64,000 nt of DNA from Desulfobacteraceae bacterium (GTDB lineage Bacteria; Desulfobacterota; Desulfobacteria; Desulfobacterales; Desulfosarcinaceae), in the NCBI GenBank assembly GCA_027068085.1, contig JAMOUQ010000022.1, forward strand, positions 23,907 through 87,906, given 5' to 3'. Positions 19,123 through 34,109 of this stretch are shown here, in pieces (within the stretch, counting starts at the first letter, position 1; each line of letters opens with the position of its first letter). The notes below the pieces were generated by a model. That model saw only the letters and a program-made list of their open reading frames with translations. It made no database searches and had not been told where the DNA came from. The translations under genes were made by a program, and so were the position numbers.

Positions 19123-21063
19123 ATGACAGCGCAATCCTCAGGAGCCGGCACCGGCCATTGCCTTGCAGGCAATTGCATGGAAATGGCGCGGCATGCGGCC
19201 CGGCTTGAAAGACAGGGCGAATTCGAGCAGGCCCTGGGCTGGTATCGCAAGGCGCTTGAAAGTGATCCCCGGTCCGGTAAGGTATGGCTGGCAGGTGGCA
19301 CCCTGCTGGCCCGCCAGGGCAGGCTCGAGGAGGCCGCGGCCTGGCTCGGGAAGGCGGCCGGCGACCCTTCCTGCAGGCCGCCCGCCCTGTACAACCTGTC
19401 CAGGGTGTACAAGGAGATGGGCCGTCTGAACCGGGCCCTCGAGACGATCCGGCTTTTTCTTGATATCAGCCCAGGCGACGGCGAAGGCTGGAACAACCTG
19501 GGAACTATCCTGATGGCCCGCGCCGATACGGAGTCCGCCTGCCGGGCTTTTGAAAAAGCGTCTGCTCTCAGACCGGAAGACCCGCTCATCCTGGCAAATT
19601 TTGCCCTGGCTCAAAAGCGCCGGGGCAGGCTCCTGAAAGCCATGGCGCTTGCCGGCCGCGCAAACCGGCTGGCCGGAGGCGGTCTATCCGCCCTTGCACT
19701 CCAGGCCCACCTGTTCCAGGAAACGTTTCACTGGCGCAGACTGGGCCGGGTGCTGACAAAGTTGCAGGAGGCAACCGGCGCGGCCCTGGCGGCCGGCCGG
19801 CGGCCGGCCGAACCGCCTTTTCTCAACTTCACCTGGTGCATGGATCCGGCCCGCAACCTGGCAGTCGCCAGGGCCTGGAGCAAATCAATAGCCCGGCGGG
19901 CCAGGCGGGCAGCCGGCGGGGTAAGTTTTCCTCACAGGCCCGGTCCCCGCAGGCGCCTGACCATCGGCTACCTTTCGGGCCAGTTCCGCAACGCGGCCAC
20001 CGGGCACCTGACCCGCAGCATGTTCCGGTACCACGACCGGCGCTTTTTCAGGGTGATTTGTTACAGCCTGCGACCGGCCACCGACGACCCCTACTGCGCC
20101 AGGATAGCTGCCGATGCCGACCGGTGGGTCGAGCTGGGTAACCTGGACGATATGCAGGCGGCCAAGCGGATTTACGATGACCGGGTGGACATTTTGGTGG
20201 ACATGACCGGTCACATGGAGGGCGGCCGGCTCGGAATCTGCGCCCTGCGGCCGGCTCCGGTCCAGGTTCACTACCTCGGTTATCCGGCCACAACCGGGGC
20301 CGATTTCATCGATTATCAGATAGTCGACCAAGTGGTGGCCCCGGAGGCGGAACAAAGGTTCTATTCCGAGCACCTGGCCTGGCTGCCCGGATGCTACCAG
20401 GTAAACGACGACGACCCTCCGCTTTCGGCCGCCAGTTTCAGCCGCGATCAGGTCGGGCTCCCACGGGACAGTTTCGTCTTCTGTTCCTTCAACACCGAGT
20501 ACAAGCTGGACCCGGTCCTCTTTCAGGCCTGGATGGATATCCTCAGGCGGACCGACAAGGGTGTCCTCTGGCTGCTGGTGCGCAGCAGGCCGGGACGCAG
20601 GATGCTCAAGGCCATGGCTGCCCGACGGGGCCTCGACCCCCGGCGGCTGGTTTTTGCCCGCCAACTGTCCAAACCGCTTCACCTGGCCAGGTTGTCCCTG
20701 GCCGACCTGGCCCTGGACACAAGGATCGTCAACGGCCATACCACCACCGCCGACGCCCTCCATGCCGGACTGCCGGTGGTTGCCCTGAAAGGAGCCCATT
20801 TTGCCTCCCGGGTTTCGGCCAGCCTGCTGGCCGCCGCCGGGCTGAGCGAGCTTGTAACCGGCAGCCTCGAAGATTACGTCGCCCTGGCGGTCTGTCTCGC
20901 AAGGGAACCGCGGCGGCTGGACTTTTTCAGGCAAAGATTGGCCCGCAGGCAGGAGATATCCCTTTTCAACACCCGCCAGACGGTTTCCCTGCTCCAGCAG
21001 GCATACCTCAAAATGTGGCAAAGATACGCGGCCGGCAGGCCGCCTGCGTCCTTCAGGGTTTGA
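19123..21063 (+). CDS. TPR + GT41 (SPINDLY/O-GlcNAc-transferase-like) protein
   Basis: N-terminal TPRs, then IGYLSGQFRNAATGHLTRSMFRYHDRRFFRVICYS and VDILVDMTGHMEGGRLGICALRPAPVQVHYLGYPATTGADFIDYQIVD, typical of bacterial OGT/SPY. In-frame TTG at 19099 is an alternative start. Confidence 0.8.
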   Translation: MTAQSSGAGTGHCLAGNCMEMARHAARLERQGEFEQALGWYRKALESDPRSGKVWLAGGTLLARQGRLEEAAAWLGKAAGDPSCRPPALYNLSRVYKEMGRLNRALETIRLFLDISPGDGEGWNNLGTILMARADTESACRAFEKASALRPEDPLILANFALAQKRRGRLLKAMALAGRANRLAGGGLSALALQAHLFQETFHWRRLGRVLTKLQEATGAALAAGRRPAEPPFLNFTWCMDPARNLAVARAWSKSIARRARRAAGGVSFPHRPGPRRRLTIGYLSGQFRNAATGHLTRSMFRYHDRRFFRVICYSLRPATDDPYCARIAADADRWVELGNLDDMQAAKRIYDDRVDILVDMTGHMEGGRLGICALRPAPVQVHYLGYPATTGADFIDYQIVDQVVAPEAEQRFYSEHLAWLPGCYQVNDDDPPLSAASFSRDQVGLPRDSFVFCSFNTEYKLDPVLFQAWMDILRRTDKGVLWLLVRSRPGRRMLKAMAARRGLDPRRLVFARQLSKPLHLARLSLADLALDTRIVNGHTTTADALHAGLPVVALKGAHFASRVSASLLAAAGLSELVTGSLEDYVALAVCLAREPRRLDFFRQRLARRQEISLFNTRQTVSLLQQAYLKMWQRYAAGRPPASFRV

Positions 21064-33300: not shown

Positions 33301-34109
33301 CGGGGGAAATTGGCTGACATGATTCTGGATACCAGATTGCCCCATATGGAAAGCAGGGCGCGGTCATTGCGGCCCTGGTACTGGAGAAAGAAATTGCTGG
33401 TGACTTTCAGGCCGGCAAGGGCCTGCTGCCTTCCGTTGGGAGTGTCGAGCCGCACCGCAGCGGCCAGCGCCTCCAGGTTGGAGGCAAAACGGTTCCGGCC
33501 GGACTCGATCTGTTGTTCGTTTTCGTAGATCATGGGCAGGGAAAGGTCGTGCAGCCACTTGGCGGGAGCGTAATCAGGGTCTGCCGCCAGAGCCCGGCGG
33601 TAGAGTTCCAGCCCCTGCCGGTAGGCGCCTTTTTTCTGCGCCACGATACCGAGGTTATAAAAGACTACCGGACTGCCCGGATTGATTGACAGGGCCTGTC
33701 GGAGGCAGACTTCGGCCTGGTCGAGTTTTTCGGCGTCGCGGAAAAGCACTCCCAGGTTGTTCCACAGCTTCCAGTCGTTCATGCCCCGGGGCAGCGCCCT
33801 GCGGAAGATTTCCAGGGCCCCGGAGTAGTCGCCGAGCTGCTGATGGCAGCGGAACAGGTTGTAAAGGGAACGGTAATCGTCGGGATCGAGCTCGATGGCC
33901 TTGCGGTATGCAACCACGGCCTGTCGAATGTCGTCCAGATCTTCAAGGGCGCTGCCGCAATTGTGCCAGGCAACGGCGAGTCCCGGGTCCATAGCTGTGG
34001 CCTGACGATAAAGATCGACCGCTTTTTCGAGGTCATTTTGCTGGTGATATCCTACGGCCCGGTTGTAGGCCGCAATGGCCGCATTTTCCGCCCCAGTGGT
34101 GACCGGCAT
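30354..34109 (-). CDS. about 1250-aa TPR + GT41 (SPY/OGT-like) + TPR + GT9-like fusion protein
   Basis: GT41 part: [21 protein letters not shown]...FRVFLYHLG and [27 protein letters not shown]. C-terminal part: [51 protein letters not shown]. ATG at 34109 (AGGGAG upstream) is preferred to the TTG at 34166. Confidence 0.8.
   Translation of the reverse strand: [1251 protein letters not shown]

Follow-up and report, generated by a model that had tools for sequence, protein, structure and literature searches.

We analysed a 64-kb stretch of DNA from a Desulfobacteraceae bacterium (the 64,000 nucleotides referred to below as the window), in which three large minus-strand genes, named G1, G2 and G3, lie beside a flagellin locus and contain five copies of a single unit, a block of tetratricopeptide repeats (TPRs) followed by a glycosyltransferase (GT) module. 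The modules are very probably GT9-like, TPR-fused, protein-directed glycosyltransferases, and we consider it reasonably probable that G1, G2 and G3 are soluble cytoplasmic protein O-glycosyltransferases of a flagellar glycosylation island, with flagellin as their target. This reading draws on five observed properties, namely the architecture of the genes, the fold of the modules, the conservation of their residues, a flagellin synteny that recurs in other lineages and the lack of membrane segments.

A first-pass annotation, made from the letters alone, had described the three genes as assemblies of one TPR-plus-GT unit of which the GT part measured about 300 amino acids (aa), and this description was borne out. 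The open reading frames (ORFs) of G1, G2 and G3 are intact and were recovered as the same three genes in an independent gene call (ENA ERZ27262658, contig k141_72073), and the five modules, which form blocks of 295–319 aa, could be aligned end to end, with pairwise identities of 36–50% and 68 invariant columns that take in EQGxGD, LQK, DTAxAHLAGA, DWRW, WYP and RQ. The genes and their parts are the following.

21053–24016, minus strand: G1, 987 aa, arranged as TPR, GT module G1a, TPR, GT module G1b
24013–27054, minus strand: G2, 1013 aa, arranged as short TPR, GT module G2a, TPR, GT module G2b
30354–34109, minus strand: G3, 1251 aa, arranged as TPR, GT41 domain, TPR, GT9-like module
22502–23434, minus strand: module G1a, GT9-like GT-B, G1 aa 195–505, with the family-invariant residues all retained
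21056–21940, minus strand: module G1b, GT9-like GT-B, G1 aa 693–987, the copy chosen for modelling
21056–22519, minus strand: module G1b plus its own TPRs, the 488-aa stretch modelled
25711–26667, minus strand: module G2a, GT9-like GT-B, G2 aa 130–448, the most divergent of the five copies
24016–24930, minus strand: module G2b, GT9-like GT-B, G2 aa 709–1013
30357–31253, minus strand: module G3c, GT9-like GT-B, G3 aa 953–1251
about 32190–33422, minus strand: GT41 domain inside G3, about aa 230–640 (PF13844, E 2e-32)

A regular-expression scan found the core DTAxAHLAGAxxxPVW exactly five times (G1 aa 425 and 921, G2 aa 368 and 941, G3 aa 1186), in each case within about 30 nucleotides (nt) of the five DNA-level cores listed beforehand, and an EQGxGD motif is located ~185 residues N-terminal of every DTAxAHLA core. 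Each of the five modules is preceded by a TPR block in which Pfam recognized multiple repeats. At the DNA level the modules appear as a 233-nt direct-repeat family with five in-register copies (starting at 21101, 22589, 24079, 25798 and 30399) that are 62–72% identical, and they are therefore old paralogues; a recent duplication or an assembly artefact was ruled out by this degree of identity together with the identical proteins encoded in the independent assembly. The stop codon of G2 and the start codon of G1 overlap as ATGA, so that G1 is translationally coupled to G2.

By sequence, the resemblance of the modules to GT9 is confined to a short region. The Pfam profile Glyco_transf_9 (PF01075) scored G1, G2 and G3 at 30.8–38.6 bits against a gathering cutoff of 22 (E 2e-7 for G3), the best stretch of each protein matching just 34–53 of the 247 profile positions. 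Over Pfam and NCBIfam models the GT9 similarity spans only 34–76 residues around the D-T-x-x-x-H-L-A core, and the NCBIfam heptosyltransferase I model gave the modules 30–36 bits against a cutoff of 185. Alignment of a module with Escherichia coli WaaC by hhalign reached a probability of 72%, with the credible part restricted to the C-terminal core, where WaaC V-D261-T262-G-L-S-H-L-T-A-A (261–266 being D-T-x-x-x-H) was placed on the D-T-x-x-x-H of the module; the corresponding values were 22% for WaaF and 52%, over 33 residues, for the GT9 domain of G4, a protein encoded elsewhere in the window and described below. The GD motif of the modules is invariant and lies directly after beta-1 as in WaaC, and no alignment put it on WaaC D13. 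In our reading of the hhalign alignment, the phosphate-loop region is GLVWAG...R-S in the modules as against HATT...K in WaaC.

Structure prediction was needed because a profile of the five modules matched no PDB sequence at E<=1. The AlphaFold2 model of G1b, built from 44 family sequences, is a two-Rossmann GT-B domain with a mean predicted local distance difference test score (pLDDT) of 93.5 and a predicted template modelling score (pTM) of 0.92. All eight of its best Foldseek matches in the PDB are GT9 structures (among them 3tov, WaaF 1psw and WaaC 2h1h/2gt1/6dfe/2h1f), with E values from 1.7e-8 to 1.7e-6, template modelling scores of 0.55–0.65 and identities of 11–14%; the protein heptosyltransferase TibC ranks below these eight at E about 3e-5, and 4rap is also found among the GT9 matches. 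The proposal that the modules are GT9-like is thus upheld by a profile score above the gathering cutoff and by the top fold matches of the model, in the sense that they have the GT9 fold and donor-site signature, with no clear GT9 resemblance over the full length of the sequence. When G1b was modelled together with its TPRs (488 aa, pLDDT 95, pTM 0.89), twelve TPR helices, equivalent to six repeats, led into the GT-B domain, and the best whole-chain fold matches were Arabidopsis SPINDLY and human and Drosophila OGT. With six TPRs and a GT-B domain, the modelled copy looks like the TPR-guided, protein-directed enzymes OGT and SPINDLY, as had been anticipated for the modules. None of the five modules itself gave a match to PF13844 (GT41) in Pfam.

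Residue conservation and hydropathy agree with intact, soluble enzymes. The 31 columns that are invariant over 44 family members, EQGxGD and DTxxxHLAGA included, are all retained in all five copies, so that by sequence no copy looks degenerate and all five look active. Neither the five modules nor the 44 family members contain an invariant or nearly invariant cysteine. No transmembrane or signal-like segment was detected in the glycosyltransferases of the island, for which the maximum Kyte–Doolittle value over a 19-residue window was 1.73, within the Rossmann core.

The link to flagellin begins with gene position. The start of G3 is 283 nt downstream of, and on the same strand as, a flagellin–ORF215–flbT–flaF cluster (34393–36805), in line with the earlier remark that one of the genes directly follows flaF, flbT and flagellin. 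FlbT and FlaF are best known as regulators of flagellin translation and secretion in alphaproteobacteria. Positions 37–64 kb of the window are occupied by two sigma54 activators and by a complete flagellar cluster that extends from flgB to flhF and has a MinD/FlhG-like gene. The flagellin locus, the gene pair between G2 and G3 and the sigma54-type elements are as follows.

35957–36805, minus strand: flagellin, 282 aa, 20% Ser+Thr
35215–35862, minus strand: ORF of 215 aa between flagellin and flbT, without a Pfam or NCBIfam match
34730–35149, minus strand: flbT
34393–34770, minus strand: flaF
34204–34219, minus strand: sigma54-type -24/-12 element TGGCATCCTGATTGCA, 95 nt upstream of the G3 start, in the flaF–G3 intergenic region
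27434–30321, plus strand: a 257-aa protein (weak GT2 match) and a 710-aa GT4/Glyco_trans_1-type protein, between G2 and G3
27331–27346, plus strand: sigma54-type element TGGCGCGGCCCTTGCT, divergent partner of AGGCACAAAGATTGCA, facing the 257-aa/GT4 operon
27148–27163, minus strand: sigma54-type element AGGCACAAAGATTGCA, 94 nt upstream of the G2 start (G2–G1 operon)
37404–37419 and 51114–51129, plus strand: sigma54-type matches upstream of a sigma54 activator and of motA

The sigma54-type elements came from a scan of the whole window for TGGCAC-N5-TTGCW with <=1 mismatch. All five matches are positioned 67–95 nt upstream of co-oriented genes (G2, the 257-aa/GT4 pair, G3, the sigma54 activator and motA), and the intergenic region 27055–27433 holds a divergent pair of them. 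The annotation had given each of the three large genes a sigma54 promoter of its own; this stands for G3 and G2, while G1 has no such element and is coupled to G2, which leaves two transcription units.

To follow the flagellin link beyond the window, we searched 80 related loci, the best of at least 587 in the genome collection, by tblastn with the flagellin, FlbT and FlaF of the window, counting neighbours within 10 kb here and throughout. Flagellin–flbT–flaF was found near TPR-GT modules in nine of the 80 loci, mostly directly adjacent. Six of the nine belong to Geobacteraceae, including the isolates Oryzomonas japonica Red96 and Geomonas sp. Red32, and the others to one Desulfatiglandales metagenome-assembled genome (MAG), one Nitrospirae MAG and one alphaproteobacterial MAG. 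In five of the six Geobacteraceae loci, five modules in one or two ORFs end 100–250 nt upstream of flagellin, and the sixth has three modules with two GT41 domains ending at that distance. The Nitrospirae MAG reproduces the gene order of the window, flagellin–flbT–flaF–TPR-GT, followed by TPR-GT41, TPR-GT2 and GT2 genes. TPR-GT41, TPR-GT2 and GT4 proteins recur as companions in the flagellin-linked loci, and homologues of the 257-aa/GT4 pair accompany modules in Oryzomonas, Geomonas, Nitrospira and other loci. Counted by lineage, and with the window included, there are five independent flagellin-adjacent occurrences, whereas by our own estimate a random 20-kb stretch of a flagellated genome would contain flagellin in perhaps 1–2% of cases. 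The flagellin association first noted in the window therefore recurs in at least four other lineages and, supported by this synteny, is not a coincidence of the window.

Two side observations concern the flagellin genes themselves. The 215-aa ORF between flagellin and flbT is weakly conserved in Geobacteraceae, and flbT/flaF adjoin short flagellins in Desulfobacterota, Geobacteraceae and Nitrospirota (window 34393–35862; loci L009, L016, L018, L025, L028, L035, L065 and L071).

From these data we infer a mechanism in which flagellin is the acceptor, the TPR block a docking domain and the modules share the work among them. Each module would be a self-contained enzyme, a TPR superhelix rigidly fused to a GT-B catalytic domain of ~295 aa. 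If the Caulobacter enzyme FlmG and OGT/SPINDLY are taken as models, docking of the acceptor would be the role of the TPR part; this acceptor is putatively the short, Ser/Thr-rich flagellin encoded just upstream, which would be modified prior to flagellar type III export. The GT-B part would then move a sugar from a soluble nucleotide-sugar onto this acceptor, with the GD motif after beta-1 and the D-T-x-x-x-H motif predicted to form the active and donor site. Different sites, or successive sugars of the flagellin glycan, may be served by the five diverged modules and by the other enzymes of the island (GT41, GT2, GT61 and GT4), and expression would be tied to the flagellar regulon through the sigma54-type promoters.

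The TPR-GT genes of the window are an ordinary member of a large family and not a one-off. Among 8000 candidates scored from a protein collection clustered at 90%, more than 5460 matched the module; the 120 best matches listed are mostly single TPR+GT proteins of about 400–560 aa, and about one-fifth consist of the GT domain only (about 280–350 aa, several from contigs <3 kb). The product names given to these matches are 'tetratricopeptide repeat protein' and 'tetratricopeptide repeat-containing glycosyltransferase family protein'. A library clustered at 50% yielded 120,344 representatives at E<=1e-3 and 32,677 at E<=1e-30, and the 150 top-scoring of these representatives are all multi-module (962–3140 aa). 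The 80 loci come from Desulfobacterota, Geobacteraceae, Nitrospirota, Planctomycetota, Alpha-, Beta- and Gammaproteobacteria, Acidobacteriota, Verrucomicrobiota, Sporomusa, many filamentous cyanobacteria, one Bacteroidales MAG and one archaeal MAG; the closest among them is a Desulfobacteraceae MAG (L003) whose two-module ORF is orthologous to G1 and 76% identical to G1b.

Tandem TPR-GT9 modules and an in-line GT41 fusion had been regarded as without a characterized precedent. Neither is singular to this DNA, since tandem arrays of two to six modules per ORF (ORFs of up to 3537 aa) were present in 27 of the 80 loci and in-line GT41 fusions in three; a GT41 catalytic domain was encoded in 19. 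In a neighbour-joining tree of modules, the window copies clustered together and with those of the Desulfobacteraceae MAG, and the Geobacteraceae copies clustered by array position, which indicates that the arrays expanded independently in different lineages. The tree ruled out that the five modules of the window are one-to-one orthologues of the five Geobacteraceae modules.

Several loci illustrate how the family is organized elsewhere. Polypeptides of 2700–3540 aa with five or six TPR-GT9-like modules were seen in filamentous, mostly oscillatorian, cyanobacteria (L029, 9014–19624; L048, 8963–18895; further five- or six-module loci are L054, L056, L061, L067, L079 and L081), and the Microcoleus modules have a methyltransferase and a UbiA prenyltransferase as neighbours. 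Single-module genes stand unfused in rows, eight in Sporomusa silvacetica (L022, 4051–16490) and five in Nitrospira japonica (L011). On plasmid p1 of Azospirillum brasilense Sp7 (L087, 4500–24100), a further case of separate single-module genes, there are twelve module copies, clustered with TPR-GT41 and GT4 homologues, and no flagellin was found within 15 kb of them; the Ralstonia megaplasmid matches that were checked for flagellin neighbours had none within 12–15 kb.

The remainder of the island, 201–21063 on the plus strand, is a single tightly packed, co-directional gene string with gmhA and hldE at its head, which confirms the reported presence of heptose-nucleotide genes. Its genes are listed below.

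201–806, plus strand: gmhA
812–2254, plus strand: hldE, 533 bits against an NCBIfam cutoff of 521
2527–3306, plus strand: HddC-like nucleotidyltransferase, below the equivalog cutoff
3257–4315, plus strand: HddA-like GHMP kinase, below the equivalog cutoff
4322–6101, plus strand: split transketolase, with the N- and C-terminal halves as separate genes
6122–8058, plus strand: two short-chain dehydrogenase/reductase (SDR) epimerase/reductases, one Fcl-like
8083–9069, plus strand: aldo-keto reductase
9008–9823, plus strand: TylF-type methyltransferase
9807–10832, plus strand: methyltransferase-like protein
10854–11894, plus strand: GT2
11891–16516, plus strand: G4, 1541 aa, GT9 followed by two GT2 domains and C-terminal TPRs
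16513–18099, plus strand: GT2-TPR protein
18059–19117, plus strand: GT61 protein, 352 aa (PF04577, E 2e-21)
19114–21063, plus strand: TPR-GT41 protein, 649 aa (PF13844, E 8e-88)

The split transketolase could supply sedoheptulose 7-phosphate for heptose synthesis. A sixth GT9-type domain had been placed at the start of the 1541-aa protein G4, correctly so (PF01075, E 5e-16; TIGR02195, heptosyltransferase II, E 4e-19 over residues 30–347); it represents a separate, more canonical subfamily, of which only a 33-residue core could be aligned with the five modules. In G4 the TPRs follow the catalytic domains, the reverse of the order in the modules, and homologues of the two GT2 domains of G4 occur in the Nitrospirae flagellin-linked locus L016. 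The GT61 gene is embedded between the GT2-TPR gene and the TPR-GT41 gene and had no homologue in the 80 related loci; GT61 enzymes are known mainly from plants and from animal EOGT. ENA ERZ27262658 splits the window into contigs k141_611309 and k141_72073, which share a 141-nt overlap inside G4 (window about 11972–12112), and the linkage of the heptose genes to the glycosyltransferases of the island therefore depends on an assembly junction. The window contained no NeuB/PseB/PseC/PseF/Leg-type nonulosonic-acid gene, as the annotation had stated, and no Maf gene; its gene lists showed no autotransporter, nor any membrane component of a polysaccharide pathway such as Wzx/Wzy, an ABC exporter or a polyprenyl-phosphate transferase.

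A number of observations weigh against flagellin as the target. Flagellin was not found in the neighbourhood of 71 of the 80 related loci, and the six Geobacteraceae loci cannot be counted as independent of one another. Cyanobacteria, which have no flagella, are rich in members of the family (Microcoleus, Leptolyngbya, Tychonema and Hormoscilla), and further members occur in Acidobacteria, a Bacteroidales MAG and an archaeal MAG. On plasmid pAB510f of Azospirillum sp. B510 (L088, 1677–19879) a module lies beside a 2751-aa calcium-binding protein and HlyD/ABC type I secretion genes, and on p1 of Caballeronia grimmiae (L091, 565–10852) beside a filamentous haemagglutinin gene, neighbours which suggest that parts of the family act on secreted fibre proteins and not on flagellin. 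(The Caballeronia module is encoded towards the 3' end of a gene whose annotation is ShlB/FhaC TpsB transporter.) The sigma54-like matches occur at chance level (5 versus 2.9 expected), and placement alone is suggestive. TPRs can also serve oligomerization in polysaccharide multienzymes, and one such TPR-containing enzyme, the Actinobacillus pleuropneumoniae capsule polymerase, appeared at rank 31 of the whole-module fold matches. No family member had been characterized in the literature searched, in which nothing was found on TPR plus GT9-like or heptosyltransferase plus flagellin, on Geobacter flagellin glycosylation or under the NCBI product name beyond the FlmG papers. On these grounds the acceptor might instead be another secreted or surface protein, or the genes might form a TPR-scaffolded polysaccharide polymerase, with the flagellar position reflecting co-regulation or chance. 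The spread of the family into taxa and loci without flagellin, the type I secretion and haemagglutinin/TpsB neighbours, the capsule multienzyme among the fold matches and the many GT classes of the island, typical of polysaccharide loci, all favour such a reading; we nevertheless regard it as unlikely here, given the same-strand, direct adjacency to flagellin–flbT–flaF in five lineages, the sigma54 elements positioned as for flagellar operons, the solubility predicted for every glycosyltransferase of the island, none of which has a membrane segment, and the missing polysaccharide membrane components. The simplest reading of the family as a whole would be that its members are protein-directed glycosyltransferases whose TPR blocks are tuned to various secreted fibre or adhesin proteins, flagellin being the acceptor in the flagellin-linked loci.

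The identity of the donor bears on two further alternatives. The modules had been named candidate flagellin heptosyltransferases, which would use ADP-heptose made by GmhA/HldE or a GDP-heptose derivative made through the HddA/HddC-like, SDR and methyltransferase genes. Their nearest structures are indeed ADP-heptose-dependent GT9 enzymes, with the protein heptosyltransferase TibC among them, and the D-T-x-x-x-H-L-A donor-site signature is conserved and aligns with WaaC D261-T262. The string headed by gmhA/hldE also carries HddC/HddA-like, Fcl-like and TylF genes along with four TPR- or GT-bearing genes, the window is free of nonulosonic-acid genes, and in Azospirillum sp. B510 GmhA-like SIS and Fcl-like genes are found beside another TPR protein, 8 kb from the module gene. 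The HddA/HddC-like pair, the Fcl-like reductase and the methyltransferases resemble the GDP-heptose modification genes of Campylobacter capsule loci. Against this, identity to GT9 structures is 11–14%, the sequence similarity is short with no PDB sequence at E<=1, and the phosphate-loop region is unlike that of WaaC. Moreover, gmhA, HddA-like and Fcl-like genes were near the modules in none of the 80 loci, flagellin-linked Geobacteraceae included, and hldE in just one, which rules out a general association of the family with heptose genes; the flagellin-linked locus of Oryzomonas has methyltransferases and GT4 genes and no sugar-nucleotide genes. The family also abounds in cyanobacteria, whose lipopolysaccharide (LPS) is generally without heptose. 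Within the window the canonical GT9 domain of G4 is the more obvious heptosyltransferase, and gmhA/hldE may simply serve LPS core synthesis. Heptose transfer by the five modules is thus possible yet doubtful, and the term heptosyltransferase was overstated, as it relied on a distant GT9 likeness and on heptose genes 19–33 kb away, with gmhA near none of the 80 loci. We retain a heptose derivative as a candidate donor and not as a conclusion, and heptose is likely a component of whatever the island makes. The fuller scheme of a cytoplasmic assembly line, in which TPR-docked, GT9-derived enzymes would put a heptose-containing (possibly deoxy- or methyl-heptose) O-glycan on flagellin, appears distinctly improbable. 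Finally, the modules might have FlmG-type activity proper and transfer pseudaminic acid (Pse) or legionaminic acid (Leg) from a CMP-sugar made elsewhere in the genome. Like FlmG, they have a two-domain plan with domains of matching size (TPR about 310 aa, GT-B about 290 aa), and the flagellin resembles that of Caulobacter in its shortness and its regulation by flaF/flbT (PMC7591256), but the 64 kb hold no NeuB/PseB/PseC/PseF-type gene despite a large sugar and GT island, and FlmG is reportedly confined to Caulobacterales (bioRxiv 10.1101/2023.12.03.569772); we give this alternative very little credence.

The reading of G1–G3 as flagellin glycosyltransferases matters because TPR-guided cytoplasmic flagellin glycosylation has so far been dissected only for FlmG, a single-module enzyme. 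The window and the Geobacteraceae, Desulfatiglandales and Nitrospirota loci point to a far larger TPR plus GT9-like family, unstudied in the literature searched, and the value lies less in the window itself than in this family and in the cultured Geobacteraceae in which the hypothesis is testable. If flagellin is glycosylated as proposed, docking by the TPRs and donor choice by the GT-B domain would be combined repeatedly in one protein, which would be of interest for glyco-engineering, a first functional handle would be gained on ~120,000 sequence clusters annotated only as 'tetratricopeptide repeat protein', and cultured Geomonas, Oryzomonas, Geobacter and Azospirillum strains would offer testable models. 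Should the heptose assembly line prove true, it would be the first protein heptosylation outside the paradigm of the bacterial autotransporter heptosyltransferases (BAHTs), and other members of the family would glycosylate RTX-type calcium-binding proteins, two-partner-secretion adhesins and cyanobacterial surface proteins.

Compared with known enzymes, the modules share their fold with GT9 and differ from it in composition. WaaC, WaaF and 3tov are the best structural matches and have the D-T-x-x-x-H-L-A motif and the G-D after the first beta-strand, whereas the modules carry invariant signatures of their own (GWxxYxWRF, EQGxGD, LQKGP, DWRW, SPWYP and RLFRQ), are fused to TPRs and presumably act on a protein rather than on Kdo2-lipid A. 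The BAHTs TibC, Aah and EhaJ are likewise GT-B enzymes related to GT9, whose target, a secreted protein, is glycosylated in the cytoplasm, and TibC is among the fold matches, although a weaker one than WaaC/WaaF. BAHTs lack TPRs, and they are said, in work attributed to Lu et al. in 2014, to be dodecamers with a Cys4 iron site. They act on the passenger domain of an autotransporter. In the modules there is no invariant cysteine, hence no conserved cysteine cluster, and no autotransporter is encoded in the window, so that the modules do not belong to the BAHTs. OGT, SPINDLY and bacterial GT41 enzymes, those of the HMW1C type included, also have a TPR superhelix that leads into GT-B and gave the best whole-module fold matches, and true GT41 domains are co-encoded with the modules, in G3, in the 649-aa protein at 19114–21063 and in 19 of the 80 loci; the catalytic domain of the modules is, however, about 100–150 residues smaller and nearest to GT9.

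As in the flagellar glycosylation islands of Campylobacter, Aeromonas, Pseudomonas and Clostridioides, sugar-nucleotide genes and soluble glycosyltransferases are clustered here with flagellin genes, and in those islands, which have Maf or other GTs, the modification takes place in the cytoplasm prior to export, as we propose for the window. Multi-module TPR-GT arrays do not feature in them, and the window is without Maf and nonulosonic-acid genes. Maf enzymes are of the GT-A type (bioRxiv 10.1101/2023.12.03.569772).

In their proposed mechanism the modules resemble FlmG of Caulobacter crescentus and Brevundimonas subvibrioides, by published description a soluble protein with N-terminal TPRs and a compact C-terminal GT-B domain. 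FlmG has 596 aa, of which the TPR part (1–313) binds flagellin and the GT-B part (309–596) transfers the sugar, and the enzyme alone suffices to glycosylate flagellin in a system of the flaF/flbT type (PMC7591256); its donor specificity is set by the GT-B domain (PMC7591256; bioRxiv 10.1101/2022.03.25.485807). The modules are similar in size (about 190–290 aa of TPR and about 295 aa of GT) and likewise occur in a system with short flagellins and FlaF/FlbT regulators. Unlike FlmG, which is single-module and uses CMP-Pse or CMP-Leg, the window distributes its five modules over three polypeptides, with one module joined in line to a GT41 domain, and has no such donor pathway. The two also differ in distribution, since the TPR plus GT9-like family spans many phyla and FlmG has been published as confined to Caulobacterales (bioRxiv 10.1101/2023.12.03.569772), and this argues for the modules being at least a different branch. 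In the metagenome collection, an exact 20-mer from published flmG primers had no match, and a wobble-tolerant pattern of the flmG C-terminus gave three chance matches, in a riboflavin-synthesis gene and in mannose-1-phosphate guanylyltransferase genes; a query of primer-derived FlmG peptide fragments returned no candidate. Taken together, the comparisons indicate that G1–G3 are probably TPR-guided cytoplasmic flagellin glycosyltransferases within a flagellar glycosylation island, of a kind already known from FlmG.

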